A stretch of DNA of 64,000 bases from an uncultured Acidobacteriota bacterium (GCA_963741955.1 CAVUKB010000001.1:64001-128000), one strand, 5' to 3'. Numbered from the stretch's first letter, positions 17,055 through 26,448 are shown. Notes: generated by a model not told the origin, from the letters alone. Program-made: numbers and translations.

Positions 17055-17113
17055 TTGGCCGATCGGTAAACTCCCGACGTGCCACGGTCATCATGGGGTT
17101 GGAGGTGTGGGTC

Positions 17114-18712
17114 ATGTGGAGATGGATAACCCGCGGCCTGATGTTGAGTTGCCTACTGGCGCTCCTCACGCCTGTGCTCTCTGCGCAGACGTTCGCAGGA
17201 TTCATAGAGAAGCCCGCCGAAGGGGCCACCGTTTCCGGAATGGTGCTCGTTCAGGGGTGGGCGATCGACCAGCAGCAGATCTCGAAGGTGGATCTGTTCG
17301 TGGACGATCAGTTCCAGCACTCGGCGGAGATCAATCTGCCTCGAGTGGACATCATCGAGGCGAACCCGACCTGGCCCGGAATCCAGAGCAAGCTCCCCGG
17401 ATTCCAGACCGGCTTCCTCGCCAGTCGCTTCTCGAACGGACCCCACACGGTCCACGTGATGGTCACCACGAGTGACAATCAGACCTACGAGGTGGGGCGT
17501 CGCACGGTCACGGTCGACAACACGATCAACCAGCCTCCGTTCGGCTTCGTCGAGACGCCGGATACGTCGTCGATCGTGGATACCGTCGGATCGTTCCCGG
17601 TGAGCGGATGGGTGACGGACACGGACGGGATCGACCACGTCGACGTTCTGGTGGACGACCTGAATCTGCAGGGCGCGGTGTACGGCGACGCGAGACCAGA
17701 CGTCTCGAACTCCTTTCCGGATTTCCCCGCCGCGATGTTCAGCGGCTTCGTAGCGTTCGTCGACACCACCCGGATCCAGGATGGTGTTCACACCCTCTCG
17801 ATCCGCGCCACTGACAGGCAGGGACTCTCGCGGGTGATCGGGAAGCGGAACATCCAGGTGTACAACACCGAGAACCAGCTCCGGCCATTCGGACACGTCG
17901 ACCAGCCGCTCAGGGATGCGGTGCTCTACGGCAACTGCGCGAGCGCGGCGCCGCCGATCTCGCCGGTTCCGGCCAGCCCGGGGAACCACATCACACCGGT
18001 CACCGGATGGACTCTCGATCTCGGCCACCGTGCCGATCTCGGCCGCGTCTCGTACGTCGAGCTCATGGTCGACGGAGTGCCGTGGTACTCGAGCGATCAG
18101 TGCGGCTACTACAAGGACTTCGGCGGCTTCGTGAACTGCTACGGCCTCCCGCGGTTCGACGTGGCGCGGCTGTATCCGAACTACCCCGACTCTCCGCGCT
18201 CCGGCTTCATGTTCACCCTCGACGTCGCGACACTCATGACGATGGGCGTTCCGGCCGGACATCACACGCTCAAAGTGCGCGTCGGTGATCAGGAGCAGAC
18301 GTTCGCGGACATTCCCGACACTTCGGGGATTCCGGTCTTCTTCACCTGCACCAACAGCGAGTTCTTCGACTTCGCATCGCTCGGCTACATCGACTTCCCG
18401 CACTCGATGGACTACGTGAAGGGAACCATCGATCTCACGGGATGGGCGATCGACGAGAACGCCGGGGTGAGAACGGTCAAGATCATCATCGACGGCAACT
18501 ACATCGGGAACGCGCAGTACGGAATGGTGCGTACCGATGTCCAGTCGGCCTATCCCTTCATCAACGGGAGCAAGACCGCGGGCTGGCGCTTCACGCTCGA
18601 CACCACGCTGCTGAGCGACGCACGCCATCGGCTCACGGTGCAGACCATCGACGCGTTCGGCAACACGTCCGAGATCGGCTCGATGGACTTTTACGTCGAC
18701 AATCCGCAGTAG
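17114..18712 (+). CDS. Secreted protein with four tandem Ig-like repeats
   Basis: Signal peptide (..VLSA-Q); SD GGAGGT at 17101; four repeats of G-x-[IV]-[DE]-x-P...GW..D...VDG/D...R.DV...P.....GF...D...G.H.L. Confidence 0.8.
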   Translation: MWRWITRGLMLSCLLALLTPVLSAQTFAGFIEKPAEGATVSGMVLVQGWAIDQQQISKVDLFVDDQFQHSAEINLPRVDIIEANPTWPGIQSKLPGFQTGFLASRFSNGPHTVHVMVTTSDNQTYEVGRRTVTVDNTINQPPFGFVETPDTSSIVDTVGSFPVSGWVTDTDGIDHVDVLVDDLNLQGAVYGDARPDVSNSFPDFPAAMFSGFVAFVDTTRIQDGVHTLSIRATDRQGLSRVIGKRNIQVYNTENQLRPFGHVDQPLRDAVLYGNCASAAPPISPVPASPGNHITPVTGWTLDLGHRADLGRVSYVELMVDGVPWYSSDQCGYYKDFGGFVNCYGLPRFDVARLYPNYPDSPRSGFMFTLDVATLMTMGVPAGHHTLKVRVGDQEQTFADIPDTSGIPVFFTCTNSEFFDFASLGYIDFPHSMDYVKGTIDLTGWAIDENAGVRTVKIIIDGNYIGNAQYGMVRTDVQSAYPFINGSKTAGWRFTLDTTLLSDARHRLTVQTIDAFGNTSEIGSMDFYVDNPQ

Positions 18713-18734
18713 CTGTGTGAACCTCCTGGACCCG

Positions 18735-18768
18735 AAAGACCCGGTCCCAGGGCCGGGTCTTTTGTTTT
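18735..18768 (+). terminator. Rho-independent terminator
   Basis: aaagacccgg-tcccaggg-ccgggtcttttgtttt directly after the stop codon. Confidence 0.8.
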
Positions 18769-18774
18769 CTGAAG

Positions 18775-18822
18775 ACGAATGCAGAATGCAGAATGCAGAG
18801 TGCAGAATTCAGAATTGAGAAG
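18775..18822. repeat. (GCAGAAT)n heptamer tract
   Basis: gacgaatgcagaatgcagaatgcagagtgcagaattcagaattgagaa; same family as 50251-50463. Confidence 0.85.
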
Positions 18823-18844
18823 TGAGTCGAGGCGGCTGTCGTCC

Positions 18845-21800
18845 CTGCATGTTCTCCCGTCAGCCGAAGCTCGTGGCTCTCGCGCGGCCTCACCCTCTCC
18901 ACGTCCGCACTCACGAACTTCAGCCGAGGACCGAGGTTCGGGGAGAGGGCAGGGTGAGGGGCAACCCTGAAAGTTGATCTCGCAGATCTCGCCTCTCGCA
19001 CGTTCTCCCGTCAGCCGAAGCTCACTGCTCTCGCGCGGCCTCACCCTCTCCACGTCCGCACTCACGAACTTCAGCCGAGGACTGAGGTTCGGGGAGAGGG
19101 CAGGGTGAGGGGCAACCCTGAAAGTTGATCTCGCAGATCATGCCTCTCGCACATTGTCCCGTCAGCCGAAGCTCACTGCTCTCGCGCGGCCTCACCCTCT
19201 CCACGTCCGCACTCATGAACTTCAGCCGAGGACCGAGGTTCGGGGAGAGGGAAGGGTGAGGGGCAAGCCTGAAAGTTGATCTCGCAGATCATGCCTCTCG
19301 CACGTTCTCCCGTCAGCCGAAGCTCACTGCTCTCGCGCGGCCTCACCCTCTCCACGTCCGCACTCACGAACTTCAGCCGAGGACCGAGGTTCGGGGAGAG
19401 GGAAGGGTGAGGGGCAACCCTGAAAGTTAGTCTCGCAGATCGTGCCTCTCGCACGTTGTCCCGTCAGCCGAAGCTCCCCGCTCTCGCGCGGCCTCACCCT
19501 CTCCACGTCCGCACTCATGAACTTCAGCCGAGGACCGAGGTTCGGGGAGAGGGAAGGGTGAGGGGCAACCCTGAAAGTTGATCTCGCAGATCGTGCCTCT
19601 CGCACGTTGTCCCGTCAGCCGAAGCTCCCCGCTCTCGCGCGGCCTCACCCTCTCCACGTCCGCACTCATGAACTTCAGCCGAGGACCGAGCTTCGGGGAG
19701 AGGGAAGGGTGAGGGGCAAGCCTGAAAGTTGATCTCGCAGATCATGCCTCTCGCACGTTGTCCCGTCAGCCGAAGCTCCCCGCTCTCGCGCGGCCTCACC
19801 CTCTCCACGTCCGCACTCATGAACTTCAGCCGAGGACCGAGGTTCGGGGAGAGGGAAGGGTGAGGGGCAACCCTGAAAGTTAGTCTCGCAGATCATGCGA
19901 TCACACATCGCGCCGTTCTCACGGTTCATCGCCACACGTTGCCAAGCGTTCTTCCCCTCACCCCCTGGCCCCTCTCCCCGAATTGCGATTTCGGGCTGAA
20001 GTTGTTTCGTTACGGACGGGGAGAGGGGAGTGCGACCCTCGCGAGTGCGAATCGACTGCGGCTACGGGAGCGGACCCAAGATTCGGACATCTCTTAGCCC
20101 TCGCCCTCTCCACGTCCGCACTCACGAACTTCAGCCGAGGACCGAGTTTCGGGGAGAGGGAAGGGTGAGGGGCAACCCTGAAAGTTGATCTCGCAGATCT
20201 CGCCTCTCGCACGTTCTCCCGTCAGCCGAAGCTCGTGGCTCTCGCGCGGCCTCACCCTCTCCACGTCCGCACTCATGAACTTCAGCCGAGGGCCGAGGTT
20301 CGGGGAGAGGGAAGGGTGAGGGGCGACCCTGAAAGTTAGTCTCGCAGATCGTGCCTCTCGCACGTTGTCCCGTCAGCCGAAGCTCCCCGCTCTCGCGCGG
20401 CCTCACCCTCTCCACGTCCGCACTCATGAACTTCAGCCGAGGACCGAGGTTCGGGGAGAGGGAAGGGTGAGGGGCAACCCTGAAAGTTAGTCTCGCAGAT
20501 CGTGCCTCTCGCACGTTCTCCCGTCAGCCGAAGCTCGCGGTTCTCGCGCGGCCTCACCCTCTCCACGTCCGCACTCATGAACTTCAGCCGAGGGCCGAGG
20601 TTCGGGGAGAGGGAAGGGTGAGGGGCAACCCTGAAAGTTGATCTCGCAGATCTCGCCTCTTGCACGTTCTCCCGTCAGCCGAAGCTCGCGGTTCTCGCGC
20701 GGCCTCACCCTCTCCACGTCCGCACTCATGAACTTCAGCCGAGGACCGAGGTTCGGGGAGAGGGAAGGGTGAGGGGCAACCCTGAAAGTTGATCTCGCAG
20801 ATCATGCCTCTCGCACGTTCTCCCGTCAGCCGAAGCTCACTGCTCTCGCGCGGCCTCGCCCTCTCCACGTCCGCACTCACGAACTTCAGCCGAGGGCCGA
20901 GCTTCGGGGAGAGGGAAGGGTGAGGGGCAACCCTGAAAGTTAGTCTCGCAGATCGTGCCTCTCGCACGTTCTCCCGTCAGCCGAAGCTCCCCGCTCTCGC
21001 GCGGCCTCACCCTCTCCACGTCCGCACTCATGAACTTCAGCCGAGGACCGAGGTTCGGGGAGAGGGAAGGGTGAGGGGCAACCCTGAAAGTTGATCTCGC
21101 AGATCGTGCGATCACACATCGCGCCGTTCTCACGGTTCATCGCCACACGTTGCCAAGCGTTCTTCCCCTCACCCCCTGGCCCCTCTCCCCGAATTGCGAT
21201 TTCGGGCTGAAGTTGTTTCGTTACGGACGGGGAGAGGGGAGTGCGACCCTCGCGAGTGCGGATCGACTGCGGCTACGGGAGCGGACCCAAGATTCGGACA
21301 TCTCTTAGCCCTCGCCCTCTCCACGTCCGCACTCATGAACTTCAGCCGAGGACCGAGGTCGGGGAGAGGGAAGGGTGAGGGGCAACCCTGAAAGTTGATC
21401 TCGCAGATCATGCCTCTCGCACATTGTCCCGTCAGCCGAAGCTCGTGGCTCTCGCGCGGCCTCACCCTCTCCACGTCCGCACTCACGAACTTCAGCCGAG
21501 GACCGAGGTTCGGGGAGAGGGAAGGGTGAGGGGCAACCCTGAAAGTTAGTCTCGCAGATCGTGCGATCACACATCGCGCCGTTCTCACGGTTCATCGCCA
21601 CACGTTGCCAAGCGTTCTTCCCCTCACCCCCTGGCCCCTCTCCCCGAATTGCGATTTCGGGCTGAAGTTGTTTCGTTACGGACGGGGAGAGGGGAGGGCG
21701 ATCTTCGCGAGCGCGGATCGACTGCGGCTACGGGACGATCCAGGATTCAGGCGTTCCGTACATCTCACCCTCTCCACGTCCGCACTCATGAACTTCAGCC

Positions 21801-23412
21801 GAGGACCGAGGTCGGGGAGAGGGAAGGGTGAGGGGCAACCCTGAAAGTTAGTCTCGCAGATCATGCCTCTCGCACGTTCTCCCGTCAGCCGAAGCTCACT
21901 GCTCTCGCGCGGCCTCGCCCTCTCCACTTCCGCACTCACGAACTTCAGCCGAGGACCGAGGTTCGGGGAGAGGGAAGGGTGAGGGGCAACCCTGAAAGTT
22001 GCTCTCGCAGGTCATGCCATGACATATCGAGCCGTTCTTCCCCTCACCCCCTGGCCCCTCTCCCCGAATTGCGATTTCGGGCTGAAGTTGTTTCGTTACG
22101 GACGGGGAGAGGGGAGGGCGATCTTCGCGAGTGCGGATCGACTGCGGCTACGGGAGCGGACCCAAGATTCGGACATCTCGTAGCCCTCACCCTCTCCACG
22201 TCCGCACTCATGAACTTCAGCCGAGGACCGAGGTTCGGGGAGAGGGAAGGGTGAGGGGCAACCCTGAAAGTTGATCTCGCAGATCTCGCCATGACATATC
22301 GAGCCGTTCTTCCCCTCACCCCCTGGCCCCTCTCCCCGAATTGCGATTTCGCGCTGAAGTTGTTTCGTTACGGACGGGGAGAGGGGAGGGCGACCCTCGC
22401 GAGTGCGGATCGACTGCGGCTACGGGAGCGGACCGACACGTGATTCGAGTCGTTCCTGAATCACCGTCAGAATTCGGCGGATGGCGGTTGCAGGATCTCC
22501 GACAATCTCACGGTTCTCGAATCGGATCACCTGAACACCATGCTCGCCGAGCATCTCGGTACGCTTGTCGTCGCAGCGCCGAGCGATCTCCGTGAAGTGA
22601 GGATCGCCATCGAGTTCGATCGCCAGACGCAGGCGGACGCAATAGAAGTCGACGATGAAGTCGCCAATGCGATGTTGTCTTCGAAACTTGAAATCTTCGA
22701 GCCGACGGTCTCGCAGACATTTCCAGAGAGCTCGCTCTGCGTCCGTCTGATTCATCCGAAGTTCACGCTCGTTTTCGCGGCTGGCATTTCTCCGCTGAAA
22801 TCGCATCTCATCATCGTACCTCGGACACCAATTCTCCGCTCTCGCGCGGCCTCATGAACTTCAGCCGAGGACCGAGGTCGGGGAGAGGGAAGGGTGAGGG
22901 GCAACCCTGAAAGTTAGTCTCGCAGATCATGCGATCACACATCGCGCCGTTCTCACGGTTCATCGCCACACGTTGCCAAGCGTTCTTCCCCTCACCCCCT
23001 GGCCCCTCTCCCCGAATTGCGATTTCGGGCTGAAGTTGTTTCGTTACGGACGGGGAGAGGGGAGGGCGATCTTCGCGAGCGCGGATCGACTGCGGCTACG
23101 GGACGATCCAGGATTCAGGCGTTCCGTACATCTCACCCTCTCCACGTCCGCACTCATGAACTTCAGCCGAGGACCGAGGTCGGGGAGAGGGAAGGGTGAG
23201 GGGCAACCCTGAAAGTTAGTCTCGCAGATCATGCGATCACACATCGCGCCGTTCTCACGGTTCATCGCCACACGTTGCCAAGCGTTCTTCCCCTCACCCC
23301 CTGGCCCCTCTCCCCGAATTGCGATTTCGGGCTGAAGTTGTTTCGTTACGGACGGGGAGAGGGGAGGGCGACCCTCGCGAGTGCGGATCGACTGCGCCTT
23401 ACGGGAGCGGAC
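18845..23412. repeat. Mosaic array of palindromic REP-like modules (21 forward P, 7 inverted Q; 151-bp period in the P runs)
   Basis: P = cctcaccctctccacgtccgcactcaYgaacttcagccgaggaccgaggttcggggagagggaagggtgagggg. Q = cccctcaccccctggcccctctccccgaattgcgatttcgggctgaagttgtttcgttacggacggggagagggga, a diverged reverse complement of P. Confidence 0.95.
22420..22806 (-). CDS. DUF559 / Vsr-like endonuclease domain protein embedded in the repeat array
   Basis: RELRMNQTDAERALWKCLR..FKFRRQHRIGDFIVDFYC..LAIELDG.PH....D.KRT..L...GVQVIRFEN.EI matches the DUF559 pattern; TACGAT lies 6 nt before the ATG. Confidence 0.9.
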   Translation of the reverse strand: MRFQRRNASRENERELRMNQTDAERALWKCLRDRRLEDFKFRRQHRIGDFIVDFYCVRLRLAIELDGDPHFTEIARRCDDKRTEMLGEHGVQVIRFENREIVGDPATAIRRILTVIQERLESRVGPLP

Positions 23413-24775
23413 CAATATCGATCCGTGCTCCCGGCCATTCCTGAAGGACCGCGTTCTCCCCTGTCGCCAGCGCCGCGCCGACGATCCAGAGCGAGAGTGT
23501 GGGCTGACTGATGCGTGGGAACGTCCAGACGATGAGCTGCGTCGGTTCGTACGGAAGACGAAGGAAGTAGAGGTAGTAGGCTGCGAGGAGGCCGCCGCCC
23601 GCGATGACGTACGGAAGGAGAGTGCGAATGCGTCCCCGGAACACGAGCAGCGCGATCAACGGGACGAGCCACGCGAGCCAGTACGAGCCGGCCGGCATGT
23701 TCTCCAGGAGCGATCCGACGATCGGAATCGCGTTCCGCCAGTGGATTCCCCCTCCATACTCCCGTTGGGGATCGATGATTGGAATGTGCGCCAGGAGCTC
23801 GAGCGCAATCCACAGGCCGAGGCTCACTGCGGCAATCCCGAGGGATGTCGCCAGGGAAAGCCATTCCATCCGCCGGCGCTCGATCCACCGCTGGATCAGC
23901 GCCGCCGCGATGAACGCTCCGACAATGAGCACGCCCTCGGTTTTCGTGAGCAGCGCCCCGCCGAGGCAAACCCCTGCGACGGTGGCGGTGGAGACGTCGA
24001 AGCGCGTGGAGAAGAGAAGCACCGCAGCCACGGTGGCGAAAACCAGCAGTGGAGCCTCGGCGTTTCCCGCCGACCACGAATCAACGAGAGAGAGCGCGAT
24101 CGCAAGCGACCAGAACGCGGTGAACGCGGCAGCGACGCGTCGAGTGGAGATCTCCGACAGAATCGATTCGATGGTCACCGCGCCGGCAAAGAGCCAGATC
24201 GCCGGAACCGTCAGTCCGAGCGACCAGCTGTGGCGGCCGATCATTAGAGCCTGCCATCCGTAGACTGCGGGCACCAGTTGCGGATAGCTCGGATGCATGT
24301 GGACCGCGTACTCCCAGTTGAGGAATCGCGCGTCGAAACCGCCCGCGGCGACGAAACGGGCCGCTTTCGCTCCCCAGAAGAAGAGGTAATCCGCCGACGT
24401 GGCGTACGTCGAAAACCCGGCGATCGCGAGATAGACGACCGCTGCGACGGTCAGCAGCCATGCCCAGCGGGTGAGCGCGTCGACCGGCGGGATATCGAAT
24501 CGTGGTTCCGGCCTCTTCCTCCTCGCCAGGAGAATGCTGCCGGCCGAAGAGATCACGAGCAGCGGTATGCCGATGGAGGCAATCGACCAGCGAACGCCTG
24601 CGATCGAAAGGAGCGTCATCCACGAGGTGAGGACGACCGACCCTCCGAGAAACGCGAAACCGGCGCGAGCGACGATCGTTTTCGATCGCAGCACCGCAGT
24701 GAACGCGAGAGGTGCCCCGAAGGCCGCGATCGCGACATACGCGAGAATGAACCCCGTGAGCTCGCGCGCCATCAT
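23399..24775 (-). CDS. Polytopic membrane protein, possible GT-C fold glycosyltransferase
   Basis: About 12 hydrophobic segments; FFWGAKA, HPSYP.LVP, AEAPL, LTKTEG motifs; ATG overlaps the upstream stop (ATGA). Confidence 0.65.
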   Translation of the reverse strand: MMARELTGFILAYVAIAAFGAPLAFTAVLRSKTIVARAGFAFLGGSVVLTSWMTLLSIAGVRWSIASIGIPLLVISSAGSILLARRKRPEPRFDIPPVDALTRWAWLLTVAAVVYLAIAGFSTYATSADYLFFWGAKAARFVAAGGFDARFLNWEYAVHMHPSYPQLVPAVYGWQALMIGRHSWSLGLTVPAIWLFAGAVTIESILSEISTRRVAAAFTAFWSLAIALSLVDSWSAGNAEAPLLVFATVAAVLLFSTRFDVSTATVAGVCLGGALLTKTEGVLIVGAFIAAALIQRWIERRRMEWLSLATSLGIAAVSLGLWIALELLAHIPIIDPQREYGGGIHWRNAIPIVGSLLENMPAGSYWLAWLVPLIALLVFRGRIRTLLPYVIAGGGLLAAYYLYFLRLPYEPTQLIVWTFPRISQPTLSLWIVGAALATGENAVLQEWPGARIDIGPLP

Positions 24776-25203
24776 CGTCTCCGATAGACCGTTCCGAGGT
24801 CGCAACGCATGACGGGGGTCAGGTCAGGATCGTCGAGCGTCCGGTGATAGCTGAGAACGTAGAGTGGATGTTCGTCAGGGCGACCGTGCTCGGAGCCGTA
24901 ATAGAAATGCGGGTAGGGACGATCCTTCGGGAAGAGGCCGACGGAGAGCATGTAGAGGTCTTGTTCCTCGGACGGGGAAGGAGCGGCAACCGTATAGGCC
25001 GTTCCCGGCGGAACCACGTCCCTGGCGAGCCACAGGAACTGCCACATCTGAGGATCGGTTCCGGGAGTCAGATCCACCGGCGTCGAGTGGCGCCGGAATC
25101 CATTCGAGTGCGAGATCCGGACGATGTCAGTCGCGCCGATCAGGAGCAATCCTGCTGCCATCAGGATCCAGAACTGCGGGATGGCTCGAGTGCTCGGCCG
25201 CAT
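24772..25203 (-). CDS. Hypothetical membrane-anchored protein
   Basis: One hydrophobic N-terminal segment (FWILMAAGLLLIG); translationally coupled to the downstream gene; start chosen by inference. Confidence 0.6.
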   Translation of the reverse strand: MRPSTRAIPQFWILMAAGLLLIGATDIVRISHSNGFRRHSTPVDLTPGTDPQMWQFLWLARDVVPPGTAYTVAAPSPSEEQDLYMLSVGLFPKDRPYPHFYYGSEHGRPDEHPLYVLSYHRTLDDPDLTPVMRCDLGTVYRRR

Positions 25204-25503
25204 GGCGGCAGATGATACATCAGGGCAGAGGTTCGTTGGGCGCCGGAAGGCTTCGATTCGTTGGAAAGCGACGGAGACAGCGCCCCGGTTCAATCCTGAG
25301 GCGGCGAAGCTTCGGGATCGTGAAATTGCACAGCAGCGCGCGCGGCTCTCTCCATCGTTTCGGCCGCGCGATCGACGGCTATGGGACCGTGTGGCGCCGA
25401 CCGGGCAGCGCCGACCTCGAGGATCGTGCACTCGATGGGGAGCGACGCGGTTCGCTCGAAAGCCATGGTACCATGCACCGTTCATTCGAACCGCGGAACA
25501 AAA

Positions 25504-26448
25504 ATGGCCATTCGTTCGCTCCTCTCACGGACTCGAGGAAGGCTCGGGCGTCTCAAACGAAGAGTCCTGAATCAGCCGGTCGATGCCGTCGCCGTGGCGG
25601 CTGCGAATTTCTGGGATCAACAGTCCGTCAAGCAGTCGATGTACTGGGCCGAGTACCCACTCGTCCGGCAGTACGTGAACCATTGCGTGACTGGAGTGGA
25701 GTGGTTGTGGCCGTTGAGTGCTTTCAAGGTGGGCTGGGCGTACGAAGCATTTGAGCGAGGGCTCTCGATCGGATGCGGCACCGGGGCGCTCGAGCGTGCG
25801 GTGATGCATCTGAACATCTGCCATTCAATCGAGGGACTGGATGTTTCGAAATCCTCCATCCGGCAGGCACGGAACGAGGCCAGGCGGGAACGGATGCGAG
25901 CGATTCGGTACAGAGTCCGCGACTGTGATGCTCTGACCCTGGCTCCTTCTCGCTACGACGTCGTCTTCTTCCACGGGTCGCTCCACCACGTGAGCGATCC
26001 GGATCGACTCCTTGACGAAGTCGTGCGAGCGCTGAAGCCTCACGGGATGCTCTACGTCGACGAGTACGTCGGACCTTCCCGAGACGAGTGGTCGGACGAG
26101 CACCTCGCTCACGCGAGAAGCGCATTCGAATCGATTCCCGAGGAGCTGAAGCTCTGGCCGGTGAATCCTCCACTCGACTGGAGCGACCCTTCGGAGATGA
26201 TCCGCTCGAGCCGGATCCGCCCCGCAGTCGAATCGAGATTCGAGATCGTTCACTACAAGCCCTACTGGGGCAATCTCCTCTTCCCACTCTTGTCCGCGCT
26301 CGACGGCCACCTCATGACCGAACCTGCGAGAGCGGGGCTCGTGGAATCCCTGATTCAGAGGGAAAAGGAGCTGGTGGAATCGGGAGAGTTCGTCGACCCG
26401 CTGTTCGCGGTGATCGTCGCGCGCAAACGTTCCGGTTCGAATCCGTGA
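25504..26448 (+). CDS. Class I SAM-dependent methyltransferase
   Basis: GLSIGCGTGALE, GLDVS, YDVVFFHGSLHHV, LKPHGMLYVDEYVGP. Confidence 0.88.
   Translation: MAIRSLLSRTRGRLGRLKRRVLNQPVDAVAVAAANFWDQQSVKQSMYWAEYPLVRQYVNHCVTGVEWLWPLSAFKVGWAYEAFERGLSIGCGTGALERAVMHLNICHSIEGLDVSKSSIRQARNEARRERMRAIRYRVRDCDALTLAPSRYDVVFFHGSLHHVSDPDRLLDEVVRALKPHGMLYVDEYVGPSRDEWSDEHLAHARSAFESIPEELKLWPVNPPLDWSDPSEMIRSSRIRPAVESRFEIVHYKPYWGNLLFPLLSALDGHLMTEPARAGLVESLIQREKELVESGEFVDPLFAVIVARKRSGSNP

Follow-up and report, generated by a model that had tools for sequence, protein, structure and literature searches.

A 64,000-nucleotide stretch of the genome of an uncultured Acidobacteriota bacterium (GCA_963741955.1, CAVUKB010000001.1:64001-128000), referred to below as the window, carries an intergenic array of short repeat modules in which a single gene for a DUF559 nuclease is embedded. 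On balance, we consider it probable that this locus represents a widespread selfish cassette, consisting of a DUF559 gene placed between two inverted copies of the bacterial BoxC/PIT/triplex motif (TM) repeat, that is recognised and copied by means of the nuclease and has here been multiplied into an array. The support for this proposal comes from the association of gene and motif and its geometry, from gene-less dispersed copies of the motif, from in-frame insertions, from one member carried by an intein, from a likeness in fold to a homing endonuclease and from the way in which blocks of the array have been duplicated. What we infer is that the nuclease recognises and cleaves the module, that copying takes place by repair and that the nuclease had a role in building the array.

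Repeats of the BoxC/PIT/TM type have been on record since the 1990s and are known from hundreds of bacterial genomes, and the DUF559 nucleases form a very large family to which hardly any function has been assigned.

The repeat module and the BoxC/PIT/TM motif

The array extends from position 18845 to about 23445 of the window and contains 21 P and seven Q modules, which were located by searches with the anchors GGGGAGAGGGnAGGGTGAGGGG (n=21) and CCCCTCACCCCCTGGCCCCTCTCCCC (n=7). Each P unit, of 151 nt, is made up of a left arm, CCCTCTCC, a 40-nt interior, GGGGAGAGGG, a 2-nt spacer, GGGTGAGGGG and a 35-nt extension, the spacer being CA in P1-P2 and AA in all other P modules. The Q units, of about 150 nt, show the mirror order on the plus strand, such that Q1 reads CCCCTCACCCC, CTGG, CCCCTCTCCCC, a 38-nt interior, GGGGAGAGGGG and a right arm ending GGGAGCGGACC, with a span of 42 nt between the 7-mer cores. 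When P was aligned with the reverse complement of Q, 93 of 130 columns were identical (72%) and, since this score was reached by none of 1000 shuffles, Q is a diverged inverted copy of P, as an earlier, sequence-only reading of this DNA had proposed. The core of the module consists of a C-strand and a G-strand followed by a GGGTGAGGG tail.

Judged from its sequence, this core is the BoxC/PIT/TM intrastrand-triplex motif, and the palindrome is therefore a published one. The TM_ECO consensus of Holder 2015 (PMC4666352), earlier named BoxC or PIT, reads CCCTCNCCC N3-6 GGGNGAGGG N3 GGGNGAGGG. According to that article, TM_ECO folds into an intrastrand triplex in vitro and occurs in 23 copies in E. 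coli K-12, five as inverted doublets, and the motif is known from more than 260 genomes. Its authors state that remnants of transposases or integrases were never found near the motif, and the words endonuclease, DUF and Vsr are absent from the main text (PMC4666352). In a literature search that left most subscription journals and the supplement of PMC4666352 outside its range, no paper was found linking BoxC/PIT/TM repeats to DUF559, YcjD or any nuclease.

The window modules keep the blocks CCCTCNCCC, GGGNGAGGG and GGGNGAGGG in the same order as TM_ECO but their first loop measures 40-42 nt between the 7-mer cores, versus 3-6 nt, and they are therefore classed as a long-loop variant and not as a strict member. 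The second loop also differs, being 2 nt in P and 6 nt in Q versus 3 nt, and the motif is embedded in units of about 150 nt that form a tandem array. The published consensus (loop 1 of 3-6 nt, loop 2 of 3 nt) has no match on either strand of the window. With the loops freed and the first block shortened to 8 of its 9 positions (CCCTCNCC), the three-block pattern fits 20 P and all seven Q modules, the first block of P reading CCCTCTCC-A and matching 8 of the 9 consensus positions.

Among the related DUF559 loci described in the next section, 24 of 80 agree exactly with the published consensus at a site no more than 300 bp from the gene. Long-loop forms are not unique to the window, because in locus L039 the first loop extends over about 50 nt and variants with a hairpin in a loop occur elsewhere; in the flanks of L006, L019, L020, L022, L026, L034, L040, L043, L049 and L064, the loop between G-strand and tail holds a small G+C hairpin of its own (e.g., GGCGCGCNNNGCGCGCC).

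Association of the motif with DUF559 genes

The comparison was based on 80 DUF559 loci from species-representative genomes, a sample among the matches listed (599 stretches), which were fetched by protein pattern only, the pattern being derived from a six-sequence alignment. Their proteins are 37-57% identical to the query, their G+C contents range from 0.35 to 0.70 and they derive from many phyla; the source genome is not in the set, and no relative in it exceeds 57% identity. Flank counts rest on the 74 loci for which both flanks were readable, and the pattern for the composite motif allows one mismatch per 7-mer core.

The sequence-only reading had named the absence of the flanking motif from close homologs as a condition that would refute it, and this check did not do so: 67 of the 74 loci have a composite on one or both sides at no more than 250 bp from the gene core, and 44 of the 74 have one on each side. 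The motif adjoins the domain, with a median of 65 nt from the tail end to the start of the core upstream, and of 67 nt from the residue-100 codon to the start of the tail downstream. The tail faces the gene in 37 loci and faces away, as in the window, in 13. Composite density falls steadily with distance from the gene core, from 4.3 per kb at 0-250 bp to 0.71 at 250-500 bp, 0.22-0.24 at 0.5-2 kb, 0.11 at 2-5 kb and 0.046 at 5-10 kb, an approximately 90-fold drop from the gene-near value, while block-shuffled loci yield 0.007 per kb. Both the association and its geometry are well supported.

Copies of the motif also occur without the gene. We found 113 composites lying more than 600 bp from the DUF559 gene, and no second DUF559 in any flank. 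These far copies include 44 neighbouring pairs less than 200 bp apart, mostly inverted, and in 28 of 37 loci the core variant of the near copies is found unchanged in the far ones. Tandem repeats (period of at least 25 bp, 2-5 copies) are present within 2 kb of the gene in 14 of the 80 loci and, by reading of the printed units, the repeat unit carries the motif stem core in about 10 of those 14. The maximum number of composites within 1.5 kb of a gene is 11 and, given these tandem copies near DUF559 elsewhere, the 28 modules of the window can be seen as the extreme of a recurrent tendency.

In the Cellvibrionaceae locus L027, a run of Ns follows directly on three printed tandem copies of the motif, about 230 nt downstream of the residue-100 codon, which suggests that motif arrays defeat short-read assembly.

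The association across phyla provides the BoxC/PIT/TM repeats with a candidate enzyme, and the DUF559 family with a testable partner.

Cassettes inside host genes

In 37 of the 80 loci the DUF559 core lies within a long open frame, and 31 of those 37 frames contain Pfam domains of a host protein in frame with DUF559. The hosts are MetRS (5), LeuRS (2), ValRS (1), HrpA (3), HsdM (3), MmeI/Eco57I-type enzymes (8) and N6_N4 methylases (3), together with one each of a Type ISP enzyme, MetH, RecQ, a UvrD-like helicase, an aminotransferase and DUF1156. Host domains are found on both sides of DUF559 in at least 17 frames. Cassettes that are in frame, flanked by the motif, bordered by host domains on both sides and free of any intein signature were seen in the essential or conserved genes metG (L021, L067, L068, L075, L078), leuS (L035, L072), valS (L010), hrpA (L004, L009, L057) and metH (L044), and in five betaproteobacterial metG genes the cassette occupies the same linker. 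Such cassettes in tRNA synthetases, helicases and restriction methylases would be nuclease domains residing inside essential proteins without an intein.

An intein was encountered in a single case. One of the 31 frames, in a Leptospiraceae assembly (L060:9440-10900), has DUF559 inside an intein, without a flanking triplex motif, and this intein splits an N6_N4 DNA methylase within its DPxGSGTT motif. At the intein borders the sequence is ...DPT|C and VHN|C, and the match to Intein_splicing (E 3.4e-6) is below the gathering cut-off.

The DUF559 gene and its product

The domain assignment of the sequence-only reading was borne out by Pfam, with a match to DUF559 (PF04480) of 115.2 bits against a cut-off of 20.6 (E 1.7e-33) that covers profile positions 4-108 of 109; DUF559 and MTES_1575 are the only Pfam matches of the gene. 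The gene had been described as the sole protein-like open reading frame (ORF) of the array, and intact-looking, and this agrees with our results: none of the eight other array ORFs matches Pfam, and the protein retains all 14 invariant columns of a 45-sequence alignment. Conserved residues of the core are present (D53, E64, D66, H70, D79 and R95), as are the N-terminal R17, T21, E24 and W28.

By sequence, one solved relative was found, 3HRL (E 1.7e-17), and the search with the window protein did not reach 3R3P. The predicted model (pLDDT 89.8) retrieved 3HRL as the best Foldseek match (E 2.8e-8), followed by the homing endonuclease I-Bth0305I (3R3P; E 6.8e-5, TM-score 0.55/0.68), with a weak match to E. 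coli Vsr (1VSR; E 0.13). On this predicted structure, the window protein is a PD-(D/E)XK nuclease with a Vsr/I-Bth0305I-like fold. Foldseek also listed mitoribosomal proteins of Tetrahymena and Toxoplasma among the near folds (6z1p_AS and 9i05 chains), and DUF559-like domains seem, from these structural matches, to have been recruited into protist mitoribosomes.

The best protein relatives, 53-59% identical, derive from Vicinamibacteria, Thermoanaerobaculia and other Acidobacteriota assemblies. A partial Thermoanaerobaculia protein, P0106, shows 68% identity over 57% of the query and carries an N-terminal extension which, in our reading, would translate a long-loop module, tail first, ahead of the same MRxQxR start. 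Among the 120 best homologs, many are extended at the N-terminus, for example by SLSRLRERAGVRA or LSPIGGEGRVRGQ, and end at the C-terminus in sequence of the type PSPLP...GEG; as their amino acid sequences indicate, these extensions are translations of the motif. For genome annotation, this would account for many of the odd N- and C-terminal extensions on proteins labelled "endonuclease domain-containing".

Organisation of the array and its surroundings

Along the array the modules follow one another as PPPPPPPQPPPPPPPQPPQPPQPQ[gene]PQPQ, that is P7-Q-P7-Q-P2-Q-P2-Q-P-Q-[gene]-P*-Q-P-Q, and the order given by the sequence-only reading proved to be exact. The sequences GGGGAGAGGG and GGGTGAGGGG occur 35 and 28 times, respectively, where shuffles predict 0.34 and 0.16 occurrences, and all of these copies are confined to 18940-23363. 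Over 18847-22018, Tandem Repeats Finder assigned 21.0 copies of a 151-bp period, and P cores have a mean identity of 94.6%. Self-comparison yields strong periods of 151, 302, 1211 and 1368 bp and, at a shift of 1368 bp, Q3-P17 and Q6-P21 agree at every position over 300 bp. The pattern of the array is one of repeated segmental tandem duplication, with some events very recent and one period spanning the gene.

The gene occupies a Q-to-P junction, where other copies hold a spacer of about 50 nt, and it is bracketed in inverted orientation by Q5 and P*, an arrangement that the sequence-only reading had described correctly. P* cannot form the hairpin because 21 nt, including the left stem CCCTCTCC, are missing. 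The start of the array at 18845 also stands; its right end had been placed at 23412 and moves to about 23445, since past the right arm a further 30 nt or so are still alike at Q5 and Q7. The features of the region are as follows.

17093-18712, plus strand: secreted Ig-domain gene with a Big_7 domain (Pfam), left neighbour of the array
18733-18764, plus strand: terminator-like hairpin ending the Ig-domain gene, a 14-pair stem followed by a T run, at the left edge of the intergenic space
18777-18815, no strand assigned: 7-bp microsatellite GAATGCA, 5.6 copies, between the Ig-gene terminator and the first P
18845-19867, plus strand: P1-P7, seven 151-bp units (Tandem Repeats Finder, anchors)
19954-20077, plus strand: Q1, inverted diverged module (anchors, alignment)
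20104-21078, plus strand: P8-P14, second seven-P block, forming with Q a 1211-bp higher-order repeat of the first block
21165-21288, plus strand: Q2 (anchors)
21314-21533, plus strand: P15-P16 (anchors)
21620-21741, plus strand: Q3, second type of Q-to-P junction; Q3 and P17 recur as Q6-P21
21767-21986, plus strand: P17-P18 (anchors)
22040-22163, plus strand: Q4, with a short P-to-Q spacer after P18
22190-22258, plus strand: P19 (anchors)
22312-22435, plus strand: Q5, whose right arm encodes the last codons (GPLP) and stop of the DUF559 gene
22420-22806, minus strand: DUF559 gene, 128 amino acids, intact-looking (Pfam, invariant columns, structure model)
22838-22901, plus strand: P20 (P*), adjoining the gene start and lacking 21 nt with the CCCTCTCC stem
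22988-23109, plus strand: Q6 (anchors)
23135-23203, plus strand: P21 (anchors)
23290-23445, plus strand: Q7 with its extension of about 30 nt, right edge of the array
23399-24805, minus strand: membrane-protein ORF, 468 amino acids, no Pfam match, right neighbour of the array

The 468-amino-acid membrane-protein ORF takes about 15 codons at its end, GPLP among them, and its stop from Q7 with the Q7 extension (23399-23445), and the array seems to have replaced the original 3' end of this ORF. The wider surroundings are those of an ordinary chromosome, with genes for MreB, a SurA-like isomerase, MgsA and a class II tRNA synthetase. The ORFs scanned between 9 and 34 kb include no DNA cytosine methyltransferase, a result that concerns linked genes only, the partner in Caulobacter being unlinked; the matches of a methyltransferase ORF at 25381-26448 are to Methyltransf_11/25/12 and similar Pfam families of the small-molecule type, and to no DNA methylase family.

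An Rfam E-value search of 18000-24000 detected no intron family, and the only candidates for a known RNA family were weak look-alikes of plant and animal microRNAs, far under the gathering scores. A scan of 18600-23600 detected no sigma-70-like promoter, such a scan being uninformative for this phylum. The possibility that the arm of the P unit is a relic of the 5' end of the gene was rejected because 326 of 3000 dinucleotide shuffles and 11 of 141 control segments scored at least as high as the local alignment (14.25).

The ycjD gene of E. coli

The DUF559 gene of E. coli K-12, ycjD, has a copy of the motif close by. TM_ECO copy 9 lies 168 bp past its stop (Holder Table 1, PMC4666352), and its C-terminal end, ...SPSP, falls inside a degenerate hairpin. 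Between the ycjD stop and copy 9 there is a second, partial ycjD 3' end (GAGACGGTGCTGGAGAATATT...; L081:1700-1930), which, from its sequence, seems to be left over from a duplication or from a second cassette. A motif doublet at hrpB-mrcB is covered to at least 80% in 3536 of 5426 E. coli genomes, and both this doublet and ycjD follow phylogroup. According to the available text of PMC12817139, ycjD takes the place of the eefRABCD operon in some phylogroups.

A possible mechanism and alternative explanations

The basic unit of the proposed cassette would be a CCCTCTCC/GGAGAGGG hairpin with GGGTGAGGG as third strand, present in two inverted copies around the nuclease gene. The nuclease would recognise the module as duplex, extruded hairpin or triplex and break the DNA at or beside it. 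Repair from another copy of the module could then have three outcomes: the gene may be copied into gene-less doublets, it may be deleted so that doublets or solo copies are left, or misaligned templates may lead to tandem expansion, as in the window. There, the two bracketing modules would have been multiplied by segmental tandem duplication to yield a 28-module array around the gene. A broader claim can be made only tentatively, and we regard it as possible without favouring it: that DUF559 nucleases are the missing enzymes of the BoxC/PIT/TM repeats, and constitute with them a new class of mobile element whose single gene encodes a Vsr-like PD-(D/E)XK nuclease. Such an element would spread by breakage at a structure-forming repeat and by repair copying, would leave gene-less doublets and solo copies, and could enter essential genes in frame without splicing and expand into arrays.

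A number of points weigh against a selfish cassette, in which action of the nuclease on the module is a plausible element. A PD-(D/E)XK nuclease is not known to act as a transposase by itself. In E. coli K-12 the motif far outnumbers the gene, with one of 18 motif loci lying beside ycjD and 17 not, and ycjD itself behaves as a static single copy, occurring in 3378 of 5426 E. coli genomes at a median of one place. Among the sampled loci, seven of 74 yielded no motif under the pattern used; on inspection by eye, variant stems in an unchanged layout were recognised in six of them, the remaining one being the intein locus. In the window, no P or Q copy and no core 10-mer lies in the 59 kb outside the array, and the shape of the array does not look like dispersal; its periods of 151, 302, 1211 and 1368 bp are those expected from unequal recombination or slippage without a nuclease. 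A search for P modules elsewhere by means of a 127-amino-acid spurious array ORF produced 34 word-sharing candidates, none of which scored among 5.8 billion proteins, and is weak evidence in that such ORFs may go uncalled. In folding, complete P and Q units have no advantage over shuffles (z -0.1 to -1.3), the stem being present in the centroid fold of a model that covers base pairs only. Finally, the TM motif has been tied to local instability (PMC4666352).

Several of these points would be explained by passive co-location, which we consider rather unlikely but which survives best among the alternatives. Fragile, recombinogenic repeats would collect insertions, DUF559 would be a passenger or an ordinary repair enzyme of the Vsr type, and the array would have arisen by slippage and unequal crossing-over alone. 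This would fit with TM loci being more rearranged than control sites (PMC4666352), with the block duplications and lack of dispersed copies in the window, with the static ycjD of E. coli and with Caulobacter VsrA, which the available text of PMC12907096 ties to cytosine methylation and not to repeats. A passenger would not, however, be expected to show a fixed geometry, with motifs on both sides in 44 of 74 loci at medians of 65 and 67 nt. Nor would one expect motifs and gene to occur together inside metG, leuS, valS and hrpA, in the gene-bearing alleles, or the motif to be constant between phyla when protein identity to the query is only 37-57%.

It is improbable that the modules simply serve the gene, either as a structure that regulates it in cis or insulates it (such as an operator, a hairpin at the transcript end or a control of translation) or as tolerated Pro/Gly-rich linkers in frame. 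The modules do abut domain borders, their translations (PSP..., GEG...) form N- and C-terminal extensions of many predicted proteins, and the gene-proximal P* is without its stem. The motif is nevertheless conserved at the DNA level, whatever its orientation and reading frame, 113 far copies have no gene nearby, PIT elements showed no promoter or terminator activity in E. coli in an earlier study cited in PMC4666352, and a regulator would leave 21 tandem copies unexplained.

A misassembled shorter repeat, as the source of the array or of its copy number and order, is very improbable: 151-bp units about 95% alike over 4.6 kb are hard for short reads, and the related locus L027 does break into Ns after three tandem copies, but the unit variants of the window are ordered and non-random, two junction types recur consistently, the region has no Ns, the DUF559 gene and both flanking genes read through cleanly, and shorter arrays of the same kind adjoin DUF559 in independent assemblies.

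Comparison with known systems

Palindromic elements of Rickettsia carry no gene; the repeats described here differ in that they bracket a nuclease domain that is inserted with them.

The window protein belongs to the same nuclease superfamily as E. coli Vsr and Caulobacter VsrA. The latter has a DUF559 domain, causes DNA damage when its partner methylation is lost and is tied to cytosine methylation, and no link to repeats is described for it in the available text of PMC12907096. No cytosine methyltransferase adjoins the window gene.

A likeness to the Vsr-like homing endonucleases of the I-Bth0305I family (PMC2677866, PMC3239194) lies in the fold, with 3R3P as the structure concerned, and a survey groups VSR, DUF559 and DUF2726 with 1cw0, 3hrl and 3r3p (PMC3424549). 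It is extended by the DUF559 relative of L060, borne by an intein in a DNA methylase gene. The window gene and the other cassettes differ in having no intron or intein, Pfam giving no intein or Hint match for the window gene, and the flanks of the window gene are repeats and not a split host gene.

With TM_ECO, the DUF559-associated motifs share an occurrence both as single copies and as inverted doublets, a presence in many bacterial groups and an association with local instability. The main text of PMC4666352 reports no mobility gene near the motif, whereas here a nuclease gene adjoins it.

The RAYT/REPIN systems are similar in that one small nuclease gene lies between inverted copies of a short palindromic repeat which, at the related DUF559 loci, is dispersed as singlets and inverted doublets. 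RAYT genes are flanked by REPs, the same geometry as that of DUF559 and its motif. The differences are that the window enzyme is a predicted PD-(D/E)XK nuclease of the Vsr-like kind and not an HUH/Y1 enzyme, that the repeat has a third strand and hence triplex potential, that DUF559 cassettes occur in frame within genes, and that the window copies are tandem and not dispersed. The sequence-only reading had seen in the locus a nuclease-plus-repeat analogue of RAYT/REPIN, a view that is supported in part: the pairing of gene and repeat is real and general, on at least one side in 67 and on both sides in 44 of the 74 loci, and the other 59 kb of the window hold no copy.

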